NCBI GenBank assembly: GCA_023898465.1
Contig: CP060223.1
Coordinates: forward strand, 736,001-800,000
Reading direction: 5' to 3'
From: Candidatus Nomurabacteria bacterium
GTDB taxonomy: Bacteria > Patescibacteriota > Patescibacteriia > HK-STAS-PATE-3
DNA: 64,000 nucleotides
In this document: one piece after another, positions 4,218 through 62,772 of the stretch
Numbering within the stretch: position 1 is the stretch's first letter
Layout: the number at the start of each line of letters is the position of its first letter
Made by a program: the position numbers and the translations under genes
Notes under the pieces: model-generated
Databases searched by the model: none
Told to the model about the DNA's origin: nothing
Seen by the model: only the letters and a program-made list of their open reading frames with translations

Positions 4218-5097
4218 TTCATCCTCCAGCGCCTAGAGCGCTTTTACCTGCCCCGCGGAGCAAGCGTATTTCAACTTCTTGGTGAAAGGAATCGTGCACG
4301 CGTACGTGCAGTATGTAGAATCCCCTTCCAGCGGGGCACAGCGCGCAAGGCACTATGGAGTCGCCACCATCGCTTGATGATGACCCTCCTCAAATCGTCC
4401 TCCGACTCAAACTTATTCGACAAGAATCAAGCGAGCTACAAAATTAACTTCATGAGAACGACTTAAGGAGAAATAGATTGTCAACGTTCACGAATCCTCA
4501 GCAACAATCTGGAGGCGAGTAACGAAATGTATCTTTGGACCGAGGCCCGATACACCCTACAGTTTCTCATGAAAGTAGTCAGTTTGCACCAACCGCGATC
4601 ATGTCCACTGGATGTCACTCCCCCTCCATATTGCTGCTGGAGATGAAAGAGGCAGACTTGAGGTATCGGTTTTCCACAATGCTGAGCAAAAGCCCAACAC
4701 CGTAGGATACCTCAAGTCCAACTCCTTCCTTTCCCGGAAGATCGGAGCGAGGTGGTCGCGGCCCTTCGCTCAAAATTTGCGTGACCGGCCAAATGCTCCC
4801 TCCGATGTTTCGGGAAAGTACTGCTAATAAAAATAGGCAGTAGACTGGGGATTTCGAGGAGACGACGAAACACGCAGTATACTGCCTTTTTACTCACCGT
4901 TTTTACGTAGGCAAAACCGGTGTCTCTCTCCTCGGATATTTATTTGGAATGAACCCCCTAAATCAGCGTAACAGCGGATAATACCATACCTAGCTATTCT
5001 TGTCAAGAGTTAAAGGTGCTAATATTAGCCAATTTAGCTAAAATTAGCCCATCCTTACATTATTCCCAGGTGGTAGAAGGAAGGGCTGGGGGTGGCG

Positions 5098-5937
5098 TCA
5101 GCACCGCCATAGCTCCTCACCTCGCACCTCAATGCACACATCCCCTTCTTCAATAGTTGAGAGTATCTGGGCACCGCGCTGCTCCACTCGCTCAAGCGTT
5201 TCAGGGCTAGGATGCCCAAATTGATTATCTAGGCCCGCGGAAACTATAACGATGCTGGGCTCTACCGCATCCAACCAAGCATCACTGGAGGAGGTTTTTG
5301 AGCCATGATGACCCAACTTCAATACATCAGCATGGAGTGGTAAACCAGACTCCAGCATTTCCTTTTCCTCATCAAAGTCGGCGTCGCCAGTCAATATGAA
5401 TGATTTCGCGCCAACATCTAAGCGAGTAACTACTGAATAGCGATTTTGATCGTCTGGCTCCTTTCCTCGCCAATCACCTTTAGGTGCGAGGACGGTCAGC
5501 TCCGCACCAGGCAAACTATAGCGTTGACCAGGCTGCGCATAGAGTATCGTTACCCCCTGATCAACTAAGAGCTGGAGAAACTCCTGATAGGCGGGCAAGT
5601 AATGTTCCACTCCGGTGAGTAAAACGCTTTGCACATGATAACGATGTAGCACCTCAACAAAGCCTGTCACATGATCAGCGTCAGGATGTGTCAGCACAAG
5701 CAGTTCAATAGTGCGGTCAAAATATGGTAAACGCTCACCTAGCCGCTCAACAACGGTCATGTCAGCTCCTGCATCAGTCAACACGTCAAAATGTTGTAGC
5801 GCTTGAATAAGTATCGCGTCTCCCTGTCCAATATCTAGAGTAGTCACTCGCACGAAATGCACCTGACGATATGACCAGACAACATATCCTGCCACGAAAA
5901 TACACAGCACAAATAAAATGAGTCGTATTCGCTTCAT
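5098..5937 (-). CDS. ComEC/Rec2-related metallo-beta-lactamase domain protein (C-terminal part of a split ComEC)
   Basis: LDIGQGDAILI…HPDADHVTG…LKLGHHGS MBL-fold motifs typical of the ComEC C-terminal domain. The start overlaps the upstream ORF by 4 nt (ATGA). Confidence 0.8.
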   Translation of the reverse strand: MKRIRLILFVLCIFVAGYVVWSYRQVHFVRVTTLDIGQGDAILIQALQHFDVLTDAGADMTVVERLGERLPYFDRTIELLVLTHPDADHVTGFVEVLHRYHVQSVLLTGVEHYLPAYQEFLQLLVDQGVTILYAQPGQRYSLPGAELTVLAPKGDWRGKEPDDQNRYSVVTRLDVGAKSFILTGDADFDEEKEMLESGLPLHADVLKLGHHGSKTSSSDAWLDAVEPSIVIVSAGLDNQFGHPSPETLERVEQRGAQILSTIEEGDVCIEVRGEELWRC

Positions 5938-7439
5938 GCCTGAGAAATTTTTAATGCTGCTCTTTGCCTCCTATCCAAATACCATACCCAGGCAAAAAGT
6001 CCGAAATAGAGAAGCAGCCACCAATATTGTCCTGTGGCAAAATGCAACAATGACCAATCCGGCAAAGCAAAAAATTCCACTACCATGATTACACCACGCA
6101 GTATGAGCCAGGTTGCCGCTCCAAATAGTATGCCAAGTGATAAAGAGAGCACGCTAAGTAAAAGCGCCGCCGTCCCGGCTGCCATGGCAAAAGGAATCAA
6201 GGGAAGGATGAGCACGTTCACAAATAAACTAACGAGAGACACTCGACCAAACACGCAGAGAATAAGTGGCAAGGTAAATAAGGAAGCGGCAATAGTGGCA
6301 GAGATGGTGCCCCGTATTTCAAAGCGCTCTGGCAAGAAATGCACCCAACGATCAACATGACCAGAAAGCAACATAAGTCCCAGGGTAGACCCAAAAGAGA
6401 GCTGAAAGCCCGCATCATCTAATAAGATGCGCGGGTTTACTAAAACCATACTTACCCCACTCAGCACGAGGGCATTTATCCCGCGACTCGGTCGACCTAC
6501 ATGTCCGGCAAAAGCGGCAATGCACCCCATAATACCTGCCCGCACAATCGACGCTTGGCCGCCCACAAAAATTACAAACAGCGAAATTGCTAAGAGGACA
6601 AACCAAAAGGCATGCCGGCGACCAATCGTTTTTATCGCCATCGACATGATGAGGTTTACAACAATGGTGATATTAAATCCTGACAGCGCAATGAGATGTG
6701 TCGTACCTGTCCGACCAAAGGCCTCTGTTAACCACTCAGGCAATCCGCGGCGCGCACCAACCAAGAGACCAGCCTCAAATGATGCTTCAGGCTCGGGTAG
6801 GATACGGGAGAGCTGCGCAGTCACCCACTCCCTCCCATCAATGAGCGCACCACTAAAACTCCAATGAGAGGATTGTACAAGATCGAAGTGGCGAGCACTG
6901 CAGGTTGTCGCAATTCCGGATAAGGCTAGATAACGATCATAGGCAAAATCCTCAATCGGCTCGGGATGACGCACAAAGCAGCTGAAGCTCACCTCATCAT
7001 TTAATCGAAAACGCGGATACAATAGCGCTCGCACTAAAATCTTTGCATCATTATTCTGTTCTGCACTTGTAATTTGATTATTAGAATTTGTTTTTTGTTT
7101 ATTGGTATTTGGAATTTGGGATTTGCTATTTGGGATTTCTATGGTGTACTTAATATGATCGCGGCGAATATCAGGCGCTGCTACAATCTGACCTTGCAGA
7201 CTAGTGTTCCCTTCAGGCAATTGAGCGAGCTCTGACACTACGGTTGCTCGCACTACACCAAGCGACAATCCAAAAAGACAAAGGAGCAACAGTGGTGCGC
7301 GCCGCCCTATAACGAAGATAATAAATACCCCGCAACAAAAAAGAAGCGGGTAAAGCAAAGGCAGAGAAATCCATCGGTAGAGACCTATACCGATGAGGAA
7401 AGAAATAAGTGTAGAGAGAAAAAGCTGGGAACGCGTCAT
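5934..7439 (-). CDS. comEC: ComEC/Rec2 competence membrane channel domain protein (N-terminal part of a split ComEC)
   Basis: 501-aa polytopic protein carrying a DUF4131-like N-terminus and a competence domain (…LIALSGFNITIV…). Contains an internal low-complexity N/Q/K-rich insert. Confidence 0.8.
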   Translation of the reverse strand: MTRSQLFLSTLISFLIGIGLYRWISLPLLYPLLFCCGVFIIFVIGRRAPLLLLCLFGLSLGVVRATVVSELAQLPEGNTSLQGQIVAAPDIRRDHIKYTIEIPNSKSQIPNTNKQKTNSNNQITSAEQNNDAKILVRALLYPRFRLNDEVSFSCFVRHPEPIEDFAYDRYLALSGIATTCSARHFDLVQSSHWSFSGALIDGREWVTAQLSRILPEPEASFEAGLLVGARRGLPEWLTEAFGRTGTTHLIALSGFNITIVVNLIMSMAIKTIGRRHAFWFVLLAISLFVIFVGGQASIVRAGIMGCIAAFAGHVGRPSRGINALVLSGVSMVLVNPRILLDDAGFQLSFGSTLGLMLLSGHVDRWVHFLPERFEIRGTISATIAASLFTLPLILCVFGRVSLVSLFVNVLILPLIPFAMAAGTAALLLSVLSLSLGILFGAATWLILRGVIMVVEFFALPDWSLLHFATGQYWWLLLYFGLFAWVWYLDRRQRAALKISQA

Positions 7440-8282: not shown

Positions 8283-9366
8283 TTATATTACCGCACCCTC
8301 GCCTTTTAAATACGCTTCGATAAAGCCATCCAAATCACCATCGAGTACGGCTTGCGGATTATCTCCCTCGTGCTTAGTGCGATGATCTTTCACCATCTTA
8401 TAGGGATGCAACACATAAGAGCGAATTTGATTTCCCCATTCAGCTGAGTGAAATTCACCCCGAAGTTCTTTGCGCTTTTCCTCTTGTTCTTCCAGCCGCC
8501 TCATGTGCAATTTCTGCTTGAGAATCTTCATGGCTGTCTCTAGGTTCTGCTTTTGCGAACGCTCATTCTGACACTGCACAGTAATCTTGGTGGGTAAATG
8601 GACAATCCGTATAGCTGAATAGGTAGTGTTCACGCTCTGTCCACCATGACCTGAGGCCGTTGATGCCTCAATCTTCAAATCCTTTTCATCAATAACAATA
8701 TCAGGCAAGTCGCCAAAGTCCGGGATCACCTCAACAAGCGCAAATGAAGTATGACGCATCTTCTCGGCATCAAAAGGAGAAATGCGCACGAGGCGATGCA
8801 CACCTGCTTCGGCTTTGAGATAACCATAAGCATAGCGACCAAGCACTTCCATAGTAACACTCTTTATGCCCGCCTCACTACCTCGAGACTCATCAATCAC
8901 TTTCGCTGTCCAGCCCTTGCGTTCAAAATAACGCAGGTACATGCGCTTCAACATCTCAGCCCAATCCTGCGCATCAGTACCACCCGCTCCGGCATGAATA
9001 GCAAAGACGGCATCATTGGCATCGTACTCGCCACTAAGCATCATAGTAAATTCAAGCTGAGTAAAATCTTTCTCCAGCTTTTCGATTTGCGACTGCAGCT
9101 CTTCAGAGTCGCCAGTCTCTTGAGCTAGCTCATCTAGGGCTTGCGATTCTTCTTGCATTCGTTGCCAAAGCTCAACCTCTTTCTTAAGTTCGTCAAATTC
9201 ACGACTTGTCTTTGCCGCTGCCATATTGTCAGACCAGAAATCTGGCTGACTCATCTTATCTTCTAATTCCTTCAATAACTGCTGCTTTTGCGGCAGGTCA
9301 AAGAAACCCCCGTGAGGAGGCAATCTTTTGTGCGAGTTCGTGGATGCGTCCTTGAAGATCAGTCAT
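8283..9366 (-). CDS. prfB: Peptide chain release factor 2 with programmed +1 frameshift
   Basis: GGQ motif (ASGHGGQSVNT) and SPF motif (RISPFDAEK) identify RF2. The upstream short frame ATG(9366)…GGG TTT CTT TGA C ends at the classic CUU UGA C shift site with an SD-like GGGGG just before it. The +1 frame continues DLPQKQQLLKELE…, matching the listed ORF 8283..9323. Confidence 0.9.
9297..9303 (-). promoter_or_regulatory. RF2 autoregulatory +1 frameshift site CUU UGA C
   Basis: Seen in sequence. Preceded by AGGGGG (internal SD). Confidence 0.85.
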
Positions 9367-9616
9367 AAAACAAAAGTAACATACAAATTTGCTGAAAGCA
9401 ATTCTCGATACACTGATATGACTCCTGTTGCGCGCTGCTGCTGTCTCTGCATGAATAAACCGAGTAGTCAGCATTGATGTTCAGCAGCGCTTGATTCTTT
9501 TGCTTCTTTTCTGATCCCTGTCCCGAACGAAGTCATCGAGCCTGTTGTGATGACGATGTTGAGGGAAAGCAGAAAAGAAGTGTATGGACACCTCTCCGTT
9601 CACTAAGTACGATGCA

Positions 9617-30112: not shown

Positions 30113-31540
30113 TTATAAATCGAGCTTCTGTTGCGCTTCTGAAACGCCTGATTCCTCTTCCATTTTTGCTACAACCTCTGGATCAGCTGCTTGGAGTTGT
30201 TGTGACTTACCTCGTTGCAGGCGCTTCACCACTTCATTTACAATTTTCTGCATATCTACCACTTCCTGAATGCCGTTTTCCATATCACGGATGAGAATTG
30301 TTCCATCCATCATCTCTTTTTGGCCAAGAATCAGTGTATATTTTGCATTCACGCGATTGGCTGCTTCTAACTGAGGTTTAATGCCGTCTTTGCTTAAACT
30401 CTCAGCCACTCGGACGCCCTGAGCTGACAATTCGCCAAAAAGTTTAATGGAAAGTTTACGGGCTGGGTCACCTAATTGTGCCAAAAATACATCGGCATCT
30501 GGCAATGCTTGCGCTTGAACGCCTTGTTCATGCAATCGATTAATCAGACGCTCAATCCCGCAAGCCGCACCCACGGCTGGCGTGGCTCGTCCGCCAATTT
30601 GTTCAATTAGACCGTCATAACGACCGCCACCACCGAGCTCAATCACTCGATCATCCCCTTCTGAGAGAACTGGTAGGAACTCAAAAGCTGTTTTGGAGTA
30701 GTAATCCAATCCTCGTACAATTCGTGGATCAAGCGTATACGGAATTTCTAACTCATCAAGGTATTCCAGCACTGACACAAAGTGCTCCCGGCTTTCTGTA
30801 TTCAAGTGATCTACGGTTTGTGGCGCTGTTTCAGCTAGAGTGCGGCATCCTGTCTGTTTGCAGTCCAATAAGCGGAGGGGATTCTTTTGCATACGACGCA
30901 AACAGTCTTCACATAGCTCACTCTTGTGGGACTTATAGTAGTCCAATAAGGCTTTTTCATACGCTGCCCGACTTTCCTTATCACCTAAGCTGTTCATATG
31001 CACGTTCACCGGCACTTGCAAACGTCGAAACACCTCATAAGTCATCGAAATTATCTGAGCGTCAACAACAGGGTGCGCATCGCCGATCGCCTCAAAGCCA
31101 AATTGAAAAAACTGACGATAACGACCAGCCTGTGGCCTATCATGTCGAAAAAATGACTCAATATAAAAGACTTTTACCGGCTGCGGCTGATTTAACATCC
31201 CATGTTCAAGGTAGGCCCGAGCCACGCCAGCCGTCCCCTCAGGCCGTAAGGCTAGGGATTCGTTGCTACGGTCAGTGAAGGTGTACATTTCCTTTTCCAA
31301 TACATCAGTCTCTTTGCCGATAGTACGATTAAACAAAGCTGCTGGTTCCAGCACCGGGGTTTCAATCTGCTCATAACGATATTCCATTGCCACCTGACGC
31401 ACTGTTTCCTCAACTAAACGCCAATAACCCTGTTCACTCGGCAGAATGTCCTTCATACCACGAACGAGCGTTGGGGTTTTTGGCTGATTGCTTCGCTTCG
31501 GGGCTGCTTGTTCAGCTGTATCTTTTACTTCTTTGCTCAT
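30113..31540 (-). CDS. hisS: Histidine--tRNA ligase
   Basis: Class II aaRS motifs (GMKDILP, LRPEGTAGVARAY) and a C-terminal anticodon-binding domain. Confidence 0.9.
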   Translation of the reverse strand: MSKEVKDTAEQAAPKRSNQPKTPTLVRGMKDILPSEQGYWRLVEETVRQVAMEYRYEQIETPVLEPAALFNRTIGKETDVLEKEMYTFTDRSNESLALRPEGTAGVARAYLEHGMLNQPQPVKVFYIESFFRHDRPQAGRYRQFFQFGFEAIGDAHPVVDAQIISMTYEVFRRLQVPVNVHMNSLGDKESRAAYEKALLDYYKSHKSELCEDCLRRMQKNPLRLLDCKQTGCRTLAETAPQTVDHLNTESREHFVSVLEYLDELEIPYTLDPRIVRGLDYYSKTAFEFLPVLSEGDDRVIELGGGGRYDGLIEQIGGRATPAVGAACGIERLINRLHEQGVQAQALPDADVFLAQLGDPARKLSIKLFGELSAQGVRVAESLSKDGIKPQLEAANRVNAKYTLILGQKEMMDGTILIRDMENGIQEVVDMQKIVNEVVKRLQRGKSQQLQAADPEVVAKMEEESGVSEAQQKLDL

Positions 31541-36146: not shown

Positions 36147-36722
36147 TTGACCCAGCGCAGAATTTATCAAAACACATACCCATACCATCTCACCACGGTA
36201 ACGAAAAACCGACGGTGGGCATTTCGAGATGTGAAACTAGCATGGAAATTGCACCAGGCAATTCTTGGCGCGTGTTTTGTTAAAGGTTACACCGCGCTGG
36301 CATTTTGCATATTACCGGACCATATACATTTGTTGGTTTGGAAGCATATCCCAGCGCGGGTAGGAGAACCCACGCTGGGCCTGGATGAAATACAAACACA
36401 ATTATTATTCCCCGAAGCCCAGCGCGCGTTCTCTAACGTGCGCGATAACAACCATGATGACATTTCATACTTAATGAAATCAATAAAAGGCACCTTTGCT
36501 CGATCAATTTCCTCCGGCCCCATCTGGCAACCCAGCTTCAATTCCCGCATCGTCGACTCTGATCAACGCCTCTACAACACACTGCAGTATATTCAATATA
36601 ATTATCGTAAACATAAACTACCCGCACACTATGGCCAAGCACCATATACCTTTCTTAATATCCCAAAAAGCATTTACAACATTGACCAAAACCGGTTTTT
36701 CTCGTACGATGGCAGAGATTGA
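36147..36722 (+). CDS. IS200/IS605-family HuH Y1 transposase-like protein, solitary (RayT/TnpA-REP-like)
   Basis: TTG start. YHLTTVTKNRR and ILPDHIHLLV (HuH) motifs are typical of Y1 transposases. No accompanying tnpB or IS ends are evident. Confidence 0.7.
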   Translation: MTQRRIYQNTYPYHLTTVTKNRRWAFRDVKLAWKLHQAILGACFVKGYTALAFCILPDHIHLLVWKHIPARVGEPTLGLDEIQTQLLFPEAQRAFSNVRDNNHDDISYLMKSIKGTFARSISSGPIWQPSFNSRIVDSDQRLYNTLQYIQYNYRKHKLPAHYGQAPYTFLNIPKSIYNIDQNRFFSYDGRD

Positions 36723-39640: not shown

Positions 39641-40167
39641 AATGCATTGTTGGACTAGGTAACCCTGGCACGAAATATGACGACACCCGCCATAACCTGG
39701 GCTTCGCACTGGTTGACGCAATTGTTGAGCACCTTGAGTTAGCGCCTTTTCAAGAGCAGAGTAAATTTAAAGCTGAGATGACCCGCAATGATGATCCTAT
39801 CCATCATTGGTTTTTCATGAAGCCACAAACCTACATGAATAACTCTGGTGAGGCAGTTGGTGAGTTTGTCCGATTCTATAAACTTCCGCTCAATGATTTA
39901 CTGGTTATTCACGATGATCTTGATTTACCTTTCGGTGAAATAAAGCATGTTGTTGATCGCGGACCGGCTGGACATAATGGAGTACAATCAATCATCGATG
40001 TTGTGGGCTCACAAGCTTTTCATCGTATCCGCATCGGCATTGGATCAAACAAGGAACTAGGCATTCCCTCTGAGGACTACGTTCTGCAAAAATTCAACAC
40101 TGAGGAAAAGCAAAAAATCTCCGAGCTACTCGAGCCTGTCCTCAACATCATTCTGAACTGGGCCTAA
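39637..40167 (+). CDS. pth: Peptidyl-tRNA hydrolase
   Basis: MKCIVGLGNPGTKYDDTRHNLGF N-terminal signature. Confidence 0.9.
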   Translation: MKCIVGLGNPGTKYDDTRHNLGFALVDAIVEHLELAPFQEQSKFKAEMTRNDDPIHHWFFMKPQTYMNNSGEAVGEFVRFYKLPLNDLLVIHDDLDLPFGEIKHVVDRGPAGHNGVQSIIDVVGSQAFHRIRIGIGSNKELGIPSEDYVLQKFNTEEKQKISELLEPVLNIILNWA

Positions 40168-40351
40168 AGAAAAAACGCCAGTGTCAGTTTTCCTACGAGT
40201 GCGGGGCTTCACACTCTTTTTTGTAGTACTTACCAACACTGGCGTTGCAGGTCCGGAGGGTCGTCCGGACAGAGAAGGACATCGGCCGCGCTTGGCGAGA
40301 AGGAAGCGAGCTTCAATGCGAGTCTCACTCAAGCAACGACCGACGTCCATG

Positions 40352-40423
40352 TGCCGTGGGAGGGATTCGAACCCCCAACCTTCAGATTACGAGTCAGATG
40401 CTCTACCACTGAGCTACCACGGC
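40352..40423 (-). tRNA. tRNA-Thr (anticodon CGU)
   Basis: Manual cloverleaf GCCGTGG…CCACGGC-A. Anticodon arm TCTGA-CTCGTAA-TCTGA has one U·U pair. Confidence 0.7.
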
Positions 40424-40579: not shown

Positions 40580-40650
40580 AGCGGGAGACGGGATTTGAAC
40601 CCGCGACCTTCCGCCAGAGGCGGCTGCTCTGCCAACTGAGCTACGCCCGC
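40580..40650 (-). tRNA. tRNA-like gene with non-canonical anticodon arm (isotype undetermined; possible pseudogene)
   Basis: Acceptor GCGGGCG/CTCCCGC has one mismatch. D and T arms are canonical. Between them CCGCC-TCT-GGCGG forms a perfect 5-bp stem with only a 3-nt loop, so no 7-nt anticodon loop can be drawn. Confidence 0.45.
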
Positions 40651-40796
40651 AAAAAAGAACGGACTAAGAATGTAGCGTATCCCCAAAAAGCTGTCAACCC
40701 TGTACCAGGCTTGGTGCGAGGTCAACCCTATCGTTCGCGAACTACGGAATCAAGAAAAAGGGAGATGCCATCAATGATGAACATCTCCCGAAGATT

Positions 40797-40868
40797 TGGT
40801 ACCTCCTGGAATCGAACCAGGGTAACCCGATTTTCAGTCGAGCACTCTACCAACTGAGTTAAGGTACC
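40797..40868 (-). tRNA. tRNA-Phe (anticodon GAA)
   Basis: GGTACCT acceptor. Anticodon arm CTCGA-CTGAAAA-TCGGG. T-loop TTCGATT. Confidence 0.8.
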
Positions 40869-40956
40869 GCTAGAGCGTGGCGGAAAGGCGAAGGACTTTC
40901 ACCAACTCACTGATCAAGACCAGCGTGTCCTCGGGGACGCCTTTCCAGAACAGATG

Positions 40957-41028
40957 AGGCGGGTCAAGGATTTGAACCTCGGAATCGCGGATTTGAAGAC
41001 CGCTGCCTTACCACTTGGCTAACCCGCC
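40957..41028 (-). tRNA. tRNA with UCA anticodon, tRNA-Cys-like body (candidate UGA-reading tRNA)
   Basis: GGCGGGT/ACCCGCC acceptor with discriminator U73. Anticodon arm GCGGT-CTTCAAA-TCCGC gives U33, anticodon 34-36 = UCA, A37. Short variable loop, 72 nt. The acceptor, discriminator and anticodon stem closely resemble bacterial tRNA-Cys (GCA), with G34 changed to U. Confidence 0.55.
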
Positions 41029-41050: not shown

Positions 41051-41124
41051 GCGCCCTGGAAGGAATTGAACCTCCGACATCTGGGTCCATAGCCCAGCGC
41101 TCTTCCGACTGAGCTACAGGGCAC
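41051..41124 (-). tRNA. tRNA-His-like (extra 5' G-1 opposite C73); anticodon reads AUG by manual fold, atypical
   Basis: G-1 + TGCCCTG acceptor with C73. D-arm GCTC-AGTCGGAA-GAGC. Anticodon arm CTGGG-CTATGGA-CCCAG. Body resembles tRNA-His, but position 34 is A rather than G. Confidence 0.45.
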
Positions 41125-41133
41125 AACAAACGG

Positions 41134-41206
41134 TAGCGCAAGCAGGATTCAAACCTACGTTTCCACACAGAGAATGTGGCGACCTAAACCACTAGTCGAT
41201 TGCGCC
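41134..41206 (-). tRNA. tRNA, anticodon CUC by manual fold (Glu-like), atypical U37
   Basis: GGCGCAA/TTGCGCT acceptor (G1·U72). Anticodon arm CCACA-TTCTCTG-TGTGG. T-loop TTTGAAT. Confidence 0.45.
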
Positions 41207-41311: not shown

Positions 41312-41386
41312 CGGCGCTGACAGGATTTGAACCTGCGAAACACTCGGCTGACCGCCGAGCTGCCTTAACCACTAGACTACAGCGCC
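41312..41386 (-). tRNA. tRNA-Asp-like (anticodon GUC), with 6-bp anticodon stem and G33
   Basis: GGCGCTG/CAGCGCC acceptor. Anticodon arm GCTCGG-CGGTCAG-CCGAGT. 75 nt. Confidence 0.5.
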
Positions 41387-41470
41387 AAAAAAAGAGCTGT
41401 CCGATGGTACCCCGGAAAATTACTTATGTCAAGAAACCCCGCCTCATCATTTGACAAGGCGGGGTAACTA

Positions 41471-42118
41471 TCAATTCAGCGAGAAACGGAAGGGAATGAC
41501 TGTCCAGACGGCCACCGCCCTATCACGCTGCTTCGCCGGACTAAAGAGCCACTGGAGTGCCGCAGCACATGCTGACTGATTCATCGACTCGAGCACCTCA
41601 CTCTGCACCACACTCGCTGCATCAACCGCACCGGTCTCGGTAATATGCACGCGCACCATCACCAAACCTTCCGCACCAGCCTGACGAGCCAAGTCAGGAT
41701 AGACCGGAGCTACCCGATGAATGACCTGTGGCGCTGTATCATAGGCCACAAAAGTCTCGGGTATTCCACTGTCCTGTCCGCTCATCACAATTGGCGGAGC
41801 AAAGGGATCGTAGGTCGTAGGAGCCAGCGTTTCTTCCAGACTGGCCATCTCGCTGATCTCAGCCTCAGCCGGCAAGTCAGGTCGCTGCACTTCTTGCGGC
41901 GGAGGTGGAACCACGAAGTCCTCCATGAACTCCACCGCGGTCATCACGCGCTCATGCAACTGATAAGGATGCGGGACATAGGGCGGCGAAAACCTGGCGA
42001 GCAAGAACAAGAGGGCAGTTGCTACCAGAAAACTCCAGCCTATGTCACGCCAGTAGTGCTGCTTCAGTAGGTAATGCTCTGAGGCACGGAAGCTTTCCAA
42101 TCCGATCACAAAGCACAC
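41471..42118 (-). CDS. TonB C-terminal-domain protein (N-terminal TM anchor, Pro-rich spacer)
   Basis: TM helix, then PPPPQEVQRPDLPAE spacer, then C-terminal …PVYPDLARQAGAEGLVMVRVHITETGAV…, a TonB_C-like motif. Confidence 0.55.
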   Translation of the reverse strand: MCFVIGLESFRASEHYLLKQHYWRDIGWSFLVATALLFLLARFSPPYVPHPYQLHERVMTAVEFMEDFVVPPPPQEVQRPDLPAEAEISEMASLEETLAPTTYDPFAPPIVMSGQDSGIPETFVAYDTAPQVIHRVAPVYPDLARQAGAEGLVMVRVHITETGAVDAASVVQSEVLESMNQSACAAALQWLFSPAKQRDRAVAVWTVIPFRFSLN

Positions 42119-42466
42119 TCCTTCTCAACCCCGGGAGGTGTATGTAGCTGCAAAGAACTGACCAGAGCTAGGGAGGCTGATGCACAGCTGCCATGCATCC
42201 GATACAGTTATCTCTAGTGTACCCTATTCGGGAATAAAGAAAAAACTCGGCCACACAGCGTCGCCGGCAAGTGGAAAGCAATAGCTGATAAACAGTACTA
42301 CCTTCACTTGAAGCTACTTGGTTTGCATAGGAGGGGTCGCATTCCGTTCGCAACTTACCGACGACGCCATACTGCCGAGCATAGCGAAGCCACTTTCACT
42401 ACCATGAACGTAACGGGAAAAAATAGCATGCATTTCCCACTTTGTCAAGGGTGAAAGGAGAAGATA

Positions 42467-59260: not shown

Positions 59261-59740
59261 TTAACTTTCCCCAATTTCGCTTTTTCCTAACCAAGCGTCA
59301 ATCGTCCACTTCCATGATTTACGCCATACAAGGAAAATAGACAATACAATCAAACCTAAATCCTTTAAGAGCGCTTCAGTCGGTGTCGCTCCGATCGAGA
59401 AAGTACCAAAGCAACCACAATCGATGTCTGTGTTCCCTCGAGCAATATTAATACTAATGGCAATGATAAAGCTCAAGAGCATAAGCGTGAGCGCTCCAGC
59501 CGCCCATCGACGCCAAAATCCAGCCAACACAAAGAGACCGCCCAATAACTCAATCCACGGCGTCACCAATGCGAATATACTTACCATACCCTCGGGAAGT
59601 AATTCGTAGGTGCGAATCGCTGCCTCAAATTCCTCCACTGGCGCCATGAGCTTCCCAAGCGCGGCGTAAACAAAGATTCCACCGACCAGCAAGCGAGCAA
59701 GCCATTCTAAGGCAATCAGCCAGCGCTTAGTTGTTGGCAT
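59261..59740 (-). CDS. DoxX/MauE-family membrane protein with CGCFG motif (putative thiol-oxidoreductase partner)
   Basis: Four TM helices and a …IDCGCFGTF… motif characteristic of MauE/DoxX-like proteins. Start taken at the internal Met to avoid overlap with the downstream DsbA. Confidence 0.6.
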   Translation of the reverse strand: MPTTKRWLIALEWLARLLVGGIFVYAALGKLMAPVEEFEAAIRTYELLPEGMVSIFALVTPWIELLGGLFVLAGFWRRWAAGALTLMLLSFIIAISINIARGNTDIDCGCFGTFSIGATPTEALLKDLGLIVLSIFLVWRKSWKWTIDAWLGKSEIGES

Positions 59741-60527
59741 TGACCTCGGATTGGTCAGTCGATGCAGTAGCGTCCGCTTCGGCAATTGCGGCATCGATCA
59801 CGGACTTCCAATTATCAGTGGTCATACCACCGACACGTCGCTCTCCATTGATGAAGAAGGTAGGAGTAGAATTTACCTTACGAGCATTACCTTCCCCAAT
59901 ATCAGTATTTACCGCTTCTTTTTGCTCGGTATTATCTATACAGCTTTGAAAAGCTTCGGAATCAATCCCAAGGTCAGAAGCGTACTGCACAAAAGTGTCA
60001 GTAACGGTGGAGCCGCTTAATACTGACCAGCTCGCTTGCTCCTCAAAAAGTTTATCGTGATACTCCCAGAACTTACCTTGCGCGAATGCACATTGTGCCG
60101 CCTCTGCAGCTGCTCGTGCATTTTTGTGAATGGTAGTTAAGGGATAATCATTGTACACAAAGCGCACATCATTTGGATATGCCGCCAACACTTCAGGGAG
60201 ATTTGTATCTGCTGCCTTACAGGCTGGACACTGGAAATCTGAGTACTCTTCAATTAAGACCTTTGCGGTTTCAGGACCTCGGCTTGGGTCGTTATCGTTT
60301 GAGAAATCACCTGCTGTACTTGTATTGTCACTACCCTGGAAAGCCCAAATACCTCCTCCAACAACCACTACAAGAATGATGACAGTCCAAATAAGCTTTT
60401 TCATACGGGCTGACTGGGCACCTTTTTCTCGGTTTGCCATTTTTTCTTGGCGTCGTAATTCTCGTCGCTGTTTTTTGGTTAGCTGCTGTTCTGTATTATC
60501 GTTCATAGCTTTGTAGAAAAGTATCAA
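59727..60527 (-). CDS. DsbA-like thioredoxin-fold thiol:disulfide oxidoreductase, membrane-anchored (paralog 1)
   Basis: TM anchor. CxxC active site FQCPACK. C-terminal cis-Pro region …TPTFFING…. Confidence 0.7.
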   Translation of the reverse strand: MILFYKAMNDNTEQQLTKKQRRELRRQEKMANREKGAQSARMKKLIWTVIILVVVVGGGIWAFQGSDNTSTAGDFSNDNDPSRGPETAKVLIEEYSDFQCPACKAADTNLPEVLAAYPNDVRFVYNDYPLTTIHKNARAAAEAAQCAFAQGKFWEYHDKLFEEQASWSVLSGSTVTDTFVQYASDLGIDSEAFQSCIDNTEQKEAVNTDIGEGNARKVNSTPTFFINGERRVGGMTTDNWKSVIDAAIAEADATASTDQSEVNANN

Positions 60528-61170
60528 GTAGTCCTAAATCCCAGGTTAAAGTTTGCTCGCTTTGTCCGGGGATGGCAATAGTCAATTGTAAGGTTTTTGG
60601 ATTCACTTTATCGATATCCAATCCTTCTTCACTTGTCCGGGCAAAGGCTACTAAGCCAATACGTTGATTGACTTCAGAGGCTGGCAAGAGCACTGAGTTA
60701 GCCTCTGACCACTGCTGCACGGGATATACATTACCCTCATCATCACTTAAGCTAACAATTTCCTCAGGATCAAATTCAGAAAGTTCATCATCTGAACTAG
60801 CTAAGGTGAGGTAGAAGACGATTGTATCAGTATTTGGCTTCAGGATGGCTAAACGATCAGCAACTTCACCCTGATGCCCTGATTTGGTGGGAAGCGCCTC
60901 TAATGCACTAGCCAGCTCTGGGAAAAAATAGCTCGCTTCTACCAATATCTTTGCATTCGTATCACCACTCCGCCAGCCAGCATCAAAGTAATCAGTAAAG
61001 ACGCCTTCGGGGGAAGTATCGCTTGAGGTATTACTAAGGAGTGTAGTGTCGCTAATAGAACTCGATCCATGCGGCCAACTTAGCCACACTCCGAAGATAA
61101 TTACCACAATACCAAAAGCCCAGAACCACACGGGCAAACTGGGCTTTGGTGTAACTTTCTTACGTGGCAT
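60496..61170 (-). CDS. Hypothetical exported protein with N-terminal TM anchor (DUF4352-like beta-sandwich, tentative)
   Basis: 224 aa with a signal-anchor and S/T-rich linker. Confidence 0.45.
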   Translation of the reverse strand: MPRKKVTPKPSLPVWFWAFGIVVIIFGVWLSWPHGSSSISDTTLLSNTSSDTSPEGVFTDYFDAGWRSGDTNAKILVEASYFFPELASALEALPTKSGHQGEVADRLAILKPNTDTIVFYLTLASSDDELSEFDPEEIVSLSDDEGNVYPVQQWSEANSVLLPASEVNQRIGLVAFARTSEEGLDIDKVNPKTLQLTIAIPGQSEQTLTWDLGLLDTFLQSYER

Positions 61171-61184
61171 GCTGCCGAATCGTT

Positions 61185-61967
61185 CTAGAGTAACTGGTCA
61201 ATAACTGATTTGAAGCTGGCGTACGGAAGTGCGCCGCTAATCAATTGACCAGTAGTGACATCGTCACCCTGTAAGACAAAGGTGGCCGGAGTACCAGACA
61301 CACCAGCGAGTTCTCCTTCACTCATATCAGCCTGTACATCATCATCATACTTCTTGCTCTGGTAGCAATCATTAAACTTATCAACGTTTAGTCCGAGATC
61401 GCTCGCTACCTGACTGTAATAGGAGTCGCTCATTGAAGACTGCGTTGCGAATATCTTATCGCCAAACTCCCAAAACTTATCTTGCTCAGCAGCACATTCA
61501 GAAGCATTTGCCGCTGGTAGCGCTTGAGGGTGAATCGAAGTGAGTGGGAAATGTCGATACACTAGAGAAACAGTGTCAGGATTCTCATCAATAATTCGCT
61601 GCAAGGTTGGGTGAAGGTTGCTGCAGTATGGGCACTGGAAATCAGAGAACTCTACCAGTACTACTTTTGCTTTAGAAGGGTCAGCGCCAAGGTAATGATC
61701 ATCCTTGGTTGGCTTGCTAATAGCCGATGCGTTGCCGGTCGGGGCTGCAGCTGCAGAGGTGTTTGTATTTGCTGCGGCCACTGTATCGGTTCCCTTTACT
61801 GTTGCAGTTGAAGCGCCACCGCCAAACATAATAAAGCCCAGCGCAGTAAGTGCTACGCCAACAAAAAGACCCAACATAAATGTGGTCTTGGGAGGTGCAT
61901 CGAGGATGCCGGCTGGACGTGAGCCTTCACCCGATGGCACGTTACGAACTACTGGAGATGGTGTCAT
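61185..61967 (-). CDS. DsbA-like thiol:disulfide oxidoreductase, membrane-anchored (paralog 2)
   Basis: FQCPYCSNLHP CxxC motif. …TPATFVLQG…. Confidence 0.7.
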   Translation of the reverse strand: MTPSPVVRNVPSGEGSRPAGILDAPPKTTFMLGLFVGVALTALGFIMFGGGASTATVKGTDTVAAANTNTSAAAAPTGNASAISKPTKDDHYLGADPSKAKVVLVEFSDFQCPYCSNLHPTLQRIIDENPDTVSLVYRHFPLTSIHPQALPAANASECAAEQDKFWEFGDKIFATQSSMSDSYYSQVASDLGLNVDKFNDCYQSKKYDDDVQADMSEGELAGVSGTPATFVLQGDDVTTGQLISGALPYASFKSVIDQLL

Positions 61968-62043
61968 GTGCTCGAGAATTTAAGAAAAAAATGAAATGCC
62001 TAAGTGATGGATAGTATACGAATTTTGAGCCCGTATTGTCAAT

Positions 62044-62772
62044 TTACTCTAACAACCCTTCTATCAACTGCTGAAAAGTGGCAAAAGGTAGGGCCCCTTC
62101 AATTTTTCTTCCGTTTACAAAAAACGTAGGCGTGCCACGAACCCCTAAATCCAAGCCGTCGGAAAAATCGTCCAAAATTTCATTCTCATATTTGCCACTA
62201 GTTATACAACTCGTAAACTCATCTTCTTTCACTCCGGCTAATCTAGCCCAAGCCAGGATATTTTCCTGCGTCATTTCGTCTTGTCCAATAAACATACGAT
62301 CATGGAGCGACCAATATTGATTTGAGCCTTGTTCCCAAGCACACTGCCCTGCTTCAGCCGCAAATAACGCGAGTGGATGAGCCTCAGTAACTGGGTAATC
62401 ACGAAAGACAAAACGAATTTGCCCACTGTAGGTATTCATAAGCTGACGTACGGTTGGAAACACCTCCTTACAATAGGGGCATTGGTAATCTCCAAACTCA
62501 ACAATAGTTACTGCAGCATCAGCAGGACCGAGTGATGGATCATTTTCACCGACCAGTTGAGCATCGAGATTGCTATTTGTGTTTACTCCCTGATTTTGCT
62601 GGGTATTAAACGTAAAACTACTGGTATCGCTAGTGATAACCTTTTGCAAGGAATGAATAGTAAGCCCGACGTATCCGCCACTCAAAATAATGAAAAGCGC
62701 GCCAAGACCAAGTACCCATGGTTTCATATACCAAGGGCGACTTTTTTGTACATACGATGGCACGTCTTGCAT
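62044..62772 (-). CDS. DsbA-like thiol:disulfide oxidoreductase, membrane-anchored (paralog 3)
   Basis: YQCPYCKEVFP CxxC motif. …TPTFFVNG…. Confidence 0.7.
   Translation of the reverse strand: MQDVPSYVQKSRPWYMKPWVLGLGALFIILSGGYVGLTIHSLQKVITSDTSSFTFNTQQNQGVNTNSNLDAQLVGENDPSLGPADAAVTIVEFGDYQCPYCKEVFPTVRQLMNTYSGQIRFVFRDYPVTEAHPLALFAAEAGQCAWEQGSNQYWSLHDRMFIGQDEMTQENILAWARLAGVKEDEFTSCITSGKYENEILDDFSDGLDLGVRGTPTFFVNGRKIEGALPFATFQQLIEGLLE

Follow-up and report, generated by a model that had tools for sequence, protein, structure and literature searches.

The 64,000-nt stretch of DNA analyzed here (the window; positions 736,001 to 800,000 of contig CP060223.1, assembly GCA_023898465.1 of a Candidatus Nomurabacteria bacterium) contains a real and intact tRNA gene with the anticodon UCA, in a setting where UGA is an ordinary stop codon. 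Our best explanation, in which we have middling confidence, is that this tRNA is a redundant and probably horizontally acquired tRNA-Cys copy with a G34U change, and at most a weak suppressor of UGA (opal) codons. The gene was located as follows:

40957..41028, minus strand: Cys-type tRNA with anticodon UCA (U34), from ARAGORN, Rfam, the minimum free energy (MFE) fold and further assemblies

ARAGORN called a 73-nt tRNA with anticodon tca at 40956-41028 (−), which it labeled 'SeC' because of the UCA anticodon alone, and the Rfam tRNA model RF00005 covers 40957-41028 (−) end to end with 63.7 bits (E = 1.7e-11). The unconstrained MFE fold is the cloverleaf itself (−27.8 kcal/mol, z = −2.45), with equally good folds in 2 of 200 shuffled sequences. 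Parsed along the cloverleaf, the tRNA reads GGCGGGU UA GCCA AGUGGUA AGGC A GCGGU CUUCAAA UCCGC GAUUC CGAGG UUCAAAU CCUUG ACCCGCC U. It has a 7-bp acceptor stem (GGCGGGU/ACCCGCC, with G1:C72, G2:C71 and C3:G70), a 5-bp T stem, giving a 7/5 architecture, and a 5-nt variable loop, and its anticodon loop CUUCAAA holds U33, U34-C35-A36, A37 and A38. U31.U39 is the sole non-canonical stem pair, A13.A22 closes the D stem, and the gene encodes no CCA end. The initial annotation had described a 72-nt tRNA with U34-C35-A36, a GGCGGGU acceptor and U73, and ARAGORN, Rfam and the cloverleaf MFE agree on each of these; its statement that the molecule is not a tRNA-Sec also stands, given the 7/5 body, the 5-nt variable loop and the U73 discriminator.

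The UCA tRNA is not an assembly error, since independent assemblies carry the same sequence. The Logan assembly of SRR12358675 has the identical tRNA, anticodon included, and matches the window at 99.994% over 17,848 nt, and in the Logan assembly of SRR23493594 the tRNA is again the same, with a single nucleotide polymorphism in 1,567 nt, at 41079, in the variable loop of the adjoining tRNA-His gene. Three Logan assemblies (SRR14234116, SRR12358675 and SRR23493594) all reproduce the tRNA genes of the surrounding block, which lies between pth and mfd, together with its pth-side junction; the mfd-side junction is spanned by the SRR12358675 assembly only.

The identity elements point to cysteine. 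Among the determinants of cysteinyl-tRNA synthetase (CysRS), U73, C35, A36 and a Cys-type acceptor are present on a class I body and G34 is absent, so that the anticodon departs from the canonical G34-C35-A36 at its first position. U73 is a major CysRS determinant, and C3-G70 is found in 55% of tRNA-Cys (PMC9976931). CysRS contacts G34 directly (PMC4536326), anticodon mutants are charged much more poorly (PMC9976931; PMC4536326), and tRNA-Cys(UCA) is charged by some CysRS forms (PMC5389517). Charging of the present tRNA is predicted to be inefficient because G34 is absent. By overall similarity, its phage BLAST matches are annotated as Val, Gln and Arg, and its best E. coli BLAST matches (81% over nt 10-62) are unannotated; as similarity outside the anticodon is not isotype-specific, it is the identity elements that carry the Cys call. 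The initial description as tRNA-Cys-like is upheld by the elements other than G34, and we regard the tRNA as Cys-type with moderate confidence. The tRNA-Gly identity set comprises C2:G71 and G3:C70, together with U73, and a Gly identity is unlikely from the 2:71 and 3:70 pairs and position 36 of the UCA tRNA; Trp and Gln identities are unlikely from position 73 (in each case by the identity sets as known to us). The CysRS gene cysS is absent from the window.

The host is a member of the Patescibacteria (candidate phyla radiation, CPR), represented by a metagenome-assembled genome (MAG) of ~1.08 Mb. Its nearest relatives by Mfd are 65-70% identical, followed by ~50% matches named Patescibacteria or Kerfeldbacteria; with identities of 65-70% at best, the host therefore belongs to a CPR lineage with sparse sampling. 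Of 58 window genes chosen greedily, 17 (29%) terminate in TGA, 21 in TAA and 20 in TAG, and the in-frame stop distances of these genes reveal no nearby excess of back-up stops after TGA. The window also encodes release factor 2 (RF2), the factor that would compete with the UCA tRNA at UGA:

8283..9366, minus strand: prfB (RF2) with a +1 frameshift site, from NCBIfam TIGR00020 (457.9 bits) and sequence

The frameshift site reads CGG GGG TTT CTT TGA C, with CTT TGA C at 9303-9297. Because TGA ends 17 of the 58 genes and RF2 is kept along with the frameshift site that contains UGA, this codon serves as an ordinary stop in the window and its global reassignment is excluded there. This bears out the initial annotation, which had judged RF2 and its frameshift site intact and global reassignment unlikely.

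The localized UGA recoding that the initial annotation also proposed found no counterpart in the window. Among all same-frame pairs of open reading frames (ORFs) parted by one TGA across the whole window, none resembles a single interrupted gene: the majority lie on the strand opposite a called gene, and the remainder are a RAYT-like ORF and LCP, a DprA extension overlapping topA, a pair that spans the tRNA block (40549) and a stretch poor in ORFs at ~4714. All three DsbA-like thioredoxin-fold genes encode their CPxC motifs with normal TGY Cys codons, and profile searches of the window returned no selA, selB or selD. Cys and His codon choice (TGC 44%, CAC 39%) follows that of the other NNY boxes, which is expected if ordinary G34 tRNAs decode, and tRNAs with the anticodons GCA or GUG are lacking from the window. 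As observations in their own right, the RAYT/IS200-like ORF is a transposase remnant of 191 amino acids (36147-36722, +) in frame with the downstream LCP gene and parted from it by a single TGA, so that the two unrelated genes have the look of a read-through pair; and the three DsbA-like paralogues (CPAC, CPYC and CPYC; 59727-62772, −) adjoin a MauE/DoxX membrane protein gene, a disulfide toolkit that is unusually rich for a ~1-Mb genome.

UCA tRNAs of this kind are rare. We searched with a pattern of a Cys/Gln-type D arm plus YTTCAAA, which fixes one D-arm type and misses UCA tRNAs with other D arms, and it gave four matches in 185,579 species genomes. Two of them, a degenerate Anaerolineales copy and a truncated Planctomycetota fragment, are not tRNAs by ARAGORN. 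The other two are of Bacillota lineage and have one acceptor-stem mismatch each: one in Gordoniibacillus kamchatkensis (NZ_JXAK01000022.1, 1864-1935; locus L005), where the tRNA closes an 18-gene tRNA array and immediately follows Gly(GCC), and one in a Bacillota MAG (positions 6-79 of locus L007), where it adjoins Leu(UAA). These may be sporadic natural opal suppressors or pseudogenes. In the metagenome collection, a slightly looser pattern gave nine matches and no intact 7/5 tRNA, four of the nine being 5' halves broken after the anticodon loop. The loci L017, L018/L006, L019 and L022, which are metagenome and genome contigs unrelated to one another, have only a tRNA-Cys-like 5' half that ends after CTTCAAA or TTTCAAA and continues into unrelated sequence; such halves look like remnants of integration at tRNA-Cys genes, not functional UCA tRNAs. 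IMG/VR gave no match to the same pattern and nothing relevant for the 3' halves of three block tRNAs. With no relative of the UCA tRNA among the species-genome and metagenome pattern matches, 7/5 tRNA-Cys(UCA) genes of this D-arm type do not form a conserved family, and the gene is a lineage-specific event and a near-singleton in public genomes and metagenomes.

The UCA tRNA gene is the fourth of five in an operon of the order Asp-Glu-His-Cys(UCA)-Phe, which lies between a promoter-like site and a terminator and is followed downstream by Arg and Thr tRNA genes. The elements of this block are:

41404..41432, minus strand: sigma-70-like promoter TTGACA-17-TACCAT (10 of 12 matches in a consensus scan), 18 nt upstream of the first tRNA; putative in function
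41312..41386, minus strand: tRNA-Asp(GUC)-like, first in the operon, with a 9-nt anticodon loop GCGGUCAGC and no CCA (cmscan alignment)
41134..41206, minus strand: tRNA-Glu(CUC)-like, with U37, T-loop UUUGAAU (U56) and no CCA (cmscan alignment)
41051..41124, minus strand: tRNA-His-like, with G-1:C73, anticodon AUG (A34), G37, loop CUAUGGA and no CCA (ARAGORN, cmscan)
40797..40868, minus strand: tRNA-Phe(GAA), regular, last in the operon, no CCA (Rfam 68.8 bits)
40755..40789, minus strand: intrinsic terminator directly 3' of tRNA-Phe, a 13-pair hairpin followed by UUUUU
40580..40650, minus strand: tRNA-Arg(UCU)-like, no CCA (cmscan and alignment with the tRNA-Arg of relatives)
40352..40423, minus strand: tRNA-Thr(CGU) with a U29.U41 mismatch, no CCA (Rfam 74.5 bits)

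The terminator hairpin at 40755-40789 has a folding energy of −18.5 kcal/mol (z = −3.17), which none of 200 shuffled sequences equaled. The tRNA-Arg gene, with which a further promoter-like site at 40669-40697 is listed, has an anticodon arm that is 2 nt short (a 3-4-bp stem), the loop CCUCUGG with C33, and a C6.U67 mismatch. Anticodon-arm anomalies thus occur in five of the seven block tRNAs: the 9-nt loop of Asp, U37 of Glu, A34 of His, U34 of Cys and the short stem of Arg. By our own count, 9 of 11 anomalies fall within the anticodon arm, a part amounting to 22% of the tRNA (binomial P~5e-5); in these five tRNAs the three remaining arms (acceptor, D and T) are intact, and all seven block tRNAs are of the 7/5 type. 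None of the seven encodes CCA, as against all four tRNA genes elsewhere in the window (Val-CAC, Leu-CAA and two Met; Fisher P = 0.003), and four of the seven read N73-CAT. The window tRNA-Leu(CAA) has a 100% identical counterpart in a relative with which the Mfd proteins share only 69% identity. Four of the five operon tRNAs, which are presumably co-transcribed, are irregular, and with a suppressor anticodon among several non-canonical tRNAs the operon has the makeup of an irregular-tRNA polycistron. Its neighbors are tRNA genes, TonB, pth, der and mfd; no gene for a toxin, a nuclease, a Fem/MprF-type transferase or a toxin-antitoxin pair adjoins it.

Some of these tRNAs have particular features of their own. 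The 9-nt anticodon loop of the Asp tRNA belongs to the size class of frameshift-suppressor tRNAs. We know of no bacterial tRNA-His with A34; the loop is CUGUGGA in a relative (L008, described below) as against CUAUGGA here, and the AUG anticodon is unchanged in a second sample. A gene for histidyl-tRNA synthetase lies near the block, at 30113-31540 (−). Farther away, at 2399-2497 (−), a 99-nt tRNA-like gene in a GC-rich patch was called Val(aac) by ARAGORN, missed by Rfam, and found 100% identical in two ENA assemblies (L026, L027). It can fold into a 9-bp acceptor and 3-bp T stem with a long D arm, an 8-bp variable arm, the anticodon AAC and A73, and this cloverleaf has −42.3 kcal/mol as against −46.6 kcal/mol for the MFE; on this modeling it is a candidate allo-tRNA-like gene with 9/3 architecture, a form reported so far from Clostridia, Proteobacteria and Acidobacteria.

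Together with an orphan TonB gene, the seven tRNA genes that lack CCA make up the GC-rich block of ~2 kb between pth and mfd, for which three more features were recorded:

41471..42109, minus strand: orphan TonB_C gene just upstream of the operon and in the same orientation (Pfam; GC 0.567)
40160..40176, plus strand: left copy of a direct repeat, GGGCCTAAAGAAAAAAC, at the pth stop codon (repeat search family D9)
42230..42246, plus strand: right copy of the direct repeat, between TonB and mfd (repeat search family D9)

The GC content of the TonB gene compares with 0.486 for the window and falls in the top 2.4% of equal-sized windows. The best homologues of this gene (54-59% identity) come from 'Candidatus Eisenbacteria', where they are part of ExbB-ExbD-ExbD-TonB operons, whereas no ExbB or ExbD gene stands beside the TonB gene of the window, and an Eisenbacteria genome with a TonB homologue (GCA_020633975.1) co-occurs in SRR12358675/6, SRR23493594 and ERZ27309201. 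The gene may reflect a transfer from host to episymbiont and give a hint at that host. The 17-nt repeat is imperfect (88% identity) and could be due to chance, and it brackets exactly the segment from Thr through Asp plus TonB. A phage origin of the tRNA cluster has no support, with no phage genes nearby and no IMG/VR match. The contig of relative L008 (GCA_043800725.1, JAZDMR010000011.1) is syntenic, in the order LCP-der-pth-[1.3 kb]-mfd-nramp-dprA-topA; its pth-mfd slot has no TonB and contains different, likewise odd tRNA genes, and the other relatives found via Mfd homologues lack the slot. From this evidence, the tRNA/TonB block was probably imported.

The L008 slot (8930-9610, −) deserves description in itself. 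It contains a tRNA-His(GUG) with G-1, C73 and an encoded CCA that has an insert of ~52 nt between C56 and A57 of its UUC^AAAU T-loop, a tRNA-Lys(UUU)-like gene with an insert of ~50 nt at the same T-loop site, and a third tRNA with a 17-nt anticodon loop. T-loop-interrupted bacterial tRNA genes would require a splicing or tolerance mechanism as yet unknown. Two further observations were made elsewhere in the window: ComEC is present as two ORFs overlapping by ATGA (5098-7439, −; N-terminal competence domain 5934-7439, MBL domain 5098-5937), either a split gene or a frameshift, and the ~880 nt at 4218-5097, in an otherwise compact genome, have no convincing ORF and no Rfam match even at E<0.5 and may represent an unrecognized non-coding RNA or decayed genes.

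On the reading that we prefer, a xenologous tRNA-Cys copy would have gained the G34U change in its anticodon, in a block whose tRNAs appear to decode under relaxed or altered constraint. The UCA tRNA would be transcribed with the irregular Asp, Glu and His tRNAs and with Phe from the promoter-like site to the terminator, and the transcript would be processed, receive its CCA end and then be inefficiently cysteinylated by CysRS via U73, C35 and A36. Once charged, the tRNA would insert Cys at UGA in competition with RF2, which would amount to weak, untargeted opal suppression, or it would be effectively inert; dedicated recoding targets were not seen in the window. It would be redundant with a native tRNA-Cys(GCA), and a native Asp tRNA must likewise exist elsewhere, because a tRNA with a 9-nt loop is implausible as the decoder of 5.9% of codons. 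The suppressor pseudogene that the initial annotation offered as an alternative comes close to such a redundant copy.

Several points weigh against this reading. The native tRNA-Cys(GCA), cca and cysS are presumptive, the part of the genome that was read being the 64-kb window. The UCA tRNA is flawless apart from U31.U39, its loop retains U33, A37 and A38, and the promoter and terminator look intact; random decay should strike the acceptor, D and T arms too, and the concentration in the anticodon arm could mean selection. Relative L010 has a tRNA-Arg with the same odd loop CCUCUGG, and the tRNA-His in the L008 slot has the same G37/A38 loop context, so some of the 'anomalies' may be lineage traits. 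The regular-looking Lys(CUU) of L008 also lacks CCA, and a missing CCA is therefore no proof of foreign origin. Finally, the TonB protein is only 57% identical to its best homologues, and any transfer would therefore be old or its donor unsampled.

The selection just mentioned would follow if the whole irregular operon did not serve decoding at all and its products were decoys or substitutes against toxins that cleave anticodon loops, amino-acid donors for tRNA-dependent transferases, or regulatory RNAs; the anticodon arms would then be free to change, or under selection for change, and the remainder of every tRNA would be preserved. We consider this unlikely. In its favor, the anomalies are gathered in the anticodon arms while the other arms are intact, the operon has its own promoter-like site and terminator, an allo-tRNA-like gene is present in the same genome, the L008 slot contains other non-canonical tRNA genes, and there is precedent in irregular-tRNA polycistrons and in charged allo-tRNAs that are unused in translation (PMC5389517). 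Against it stand the lack of an adjoining toxin, nuclease, Fem/MprF-type transferase or toxin-antitoxin gene, the lack of conservation beyond the strain level, the ordinary decoding capacity of Phe and largely also of Thr, and the dependence of the concentration statistic on our own list of 11 anomalies. A purposeful recoding function, in which the tRNA is a maintained opal suppressor that inserts Cys at particular UGAs elsewhere (former Sec/Cys positions or regulated C-terminal extensions), is in our judgment improbable. The tRNA is indeed intact, with U33, A37 and A38 in its loop and U73, C35 and A36 kept, expression signals are present, and three samples show the same anticodon; in addition, tRNA-Cys(UCA) is a substrate of some CysRS forms, and selC* recodes UGA (PMC5389517). 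However, an in-frame TGA flanked by coding sequence occurs in none of the 58 window genes, the thioredoxin-fold CPxC motifs use TGY, and no selB*- or cysS*-like partner adjoins the gene, which is a singleton without conserved relatives embedded among tRNAs unable to decode normally; moreover, it is not obvious how EF-Tu would direct a canonical 7/5 tRNA to particular UGAs.

That the UCA tRNA is instead the sole tRNA-Cys of the genome, reading UGU and UGC after RNA editing or by four-way wobble of a U34 that is unmodified or carries a special modification, with His(AUG) likewise the sole tRNA-His, appears very improbable. CPR genomes are small and their tRNAs usually single-copy, Phe and Asp genes are in the same cluster, and the window has no GCA or GUG tRNA; yet such a tRNA would also read UGA and UGG while UGA is a frequent stop and RF2 is kept, the Asp and Arg tRNAs of the cluster cannot be sole decoders, so that duplicates must exist, His and Cys codon choice is not skewed, and the other window tRNAs all encode CCA. 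An assembly or sequencing artifact or a chimeric contig, which the MAG source and the deviant GC content of the block might suggest, is scarcely credible, given that three Logan assemblies reproduce the tRNAs and the pth-side junction, even though SRR12358675 alone covers the mfd-side junction. A bolder proposal, which we consider quite doubtful, is that the acquired islet is an operon of deliberately remodeled anticodon arms (the opal Cys, A34 of His, the 9-nt loop of Asp and the short-stem Arg) that together with the allo-tRNA-like gene forms a functional system. With the same reserve, such a system might recode or mistranslate under certain conditions (UGA to Cys, suppression of frameshifts) or supply toxin-resistant or decoy tRNAs in the interplay with host or phages.

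Natural stop-reading tRNAs in genomes where the stop codon is still used are the raw material of genetic-code change. To our knowledge, Euplotes and the specialized selC* system are the only cases in which UGA is read as Cys, and a tRNA-Cys(UCA) of canonical shape that coexists with RF2 in a CPR bacterium would capture either an intermediate of this kind or the decay of redundant, imported tRNA genes. The lineage has several non-canonical tRNAs, with the irregular operon, the allo-tRNA-like gene and the T-loop-interrupted tRNAs of the relative. The automatic labels SeC, His(ATG) and Val(AAC) are wrong for these genes and can mislead code inference and completeness estimates of CPR MAGs. If the operon is functional, it would make programmed ambiguity or tRNA-based conflict in episymbionts accessible to experiment, and a truly remodeled operon would represent an accessory tRNA system of a new type among episymbiotic bacteria.

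Among known systems, the selC* tRNA-Cys shares with the UCA tRNA U73, Cys determinants, the opal UCA anticodon and a UGA that is kept as stop, and each would put Cys at UGA. The selC* tRNA, which recodes UGA, has an 8/4 acceptor/T arrangement with a bulged A51a, its variable arm and its anticodon stem are both long, and it occurs in genomes with a complete Sec system; in Syntrophobacterales and Desulfobacterales (Deltaproteobacteria), its gene is followed by selB* and in some also by cysS* (PMC5389517). In contrast, the present tRNA is of the 7/5 type with a 5-nt variable loop, belongs to a CPR host and has no adjoining selB* or cysS*; a selC*-type system is ruled out by the 7/5 structure, and no sel genes are found in the window. 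The likeness to described UCA tRNA-Cys variants that the initial annotation had drawn fails on the same point, since those variants are selC* tRNAs with 8/4 architecture and a long variable arm (PMC5389517). The code-25 CPR (Gracilibacteria, Absconditabacteria) and their phages have a tRNA-Gly(UCA) (bioRxiv 10.1101/2024.03.08.584096). The CPR host, the UCA anticodon and U73 (U73 of tRNA-Gly as known to us) are common to both; however, many in-frame UGA codons occur there, whereas here UGA ends 29% of the window genes and RF2 is present. Code-25 genomes are not known to encode RF2. A code-25 tRNA-Gly(UCA) is ruled out here by RF2, by the lack of a TGA-interrupted window gene, by G2:C71 and C3:G70, and by A36. 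tRNA-Sec (selC) is distinguished by an acceptor/T branch of 13 bp (8/5), a D stem of 6 bp, a long variable arm and G73; the UCA tRNA shows none of the four and has only the anticodon in common with it. In phages with recoded stop codons, too, suppressor tRNAs occur within accessory tRNA clusters on apparently mobile DNA, but here phage genes nearby, an IMG/VR match and recoded genes in the vicinity are all missing.

Two comparisons fit better. Acidobacteria and other bacteria have irregular-tRNA polycistrons and allo-tRNAs, some of them charged but unused in translation and possibly associated with toxin-antitoxin genes (PMC5389517). Like those polycistrons, the operon has several non-canonical tRNAs, among them possible suppressors of nonsense or missense codons and a His-type tRNA that has G-1 but not a His anticodon; its function is likewise uncertain, and an allo-tRNA-like gene is present in the same genome. 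Unlike them, with their 8/4 or 9/3 bodies or extra loops and nearby toxin-antitoxin genes (PMC5389517), it consists of 7/5 tRNAs whose changes are confined to the anticodon arm, and no toxin-antitoxin genes adjoin it. Classical anticodon-mutant opal suppressors, known from the laboratory and sporadically from nature (where the two Bacillota-lineage UCA tRNAs compare), likewise arise by a single position-34 change that turns a duplicate tRNA gene into a stop-codon reader, but they are isolated mutations in regular tRNA sets, whereas here the change is one of many in the anticodon arms of one operon. The UCA tRNA, then, is neither a selC* tRNA nor a tRNA-Sec nor a code-25 tRNA; it would behave as classical anticodon-mutant opal suppressors do, and it recalls the irregular-tRNA polycistrons.

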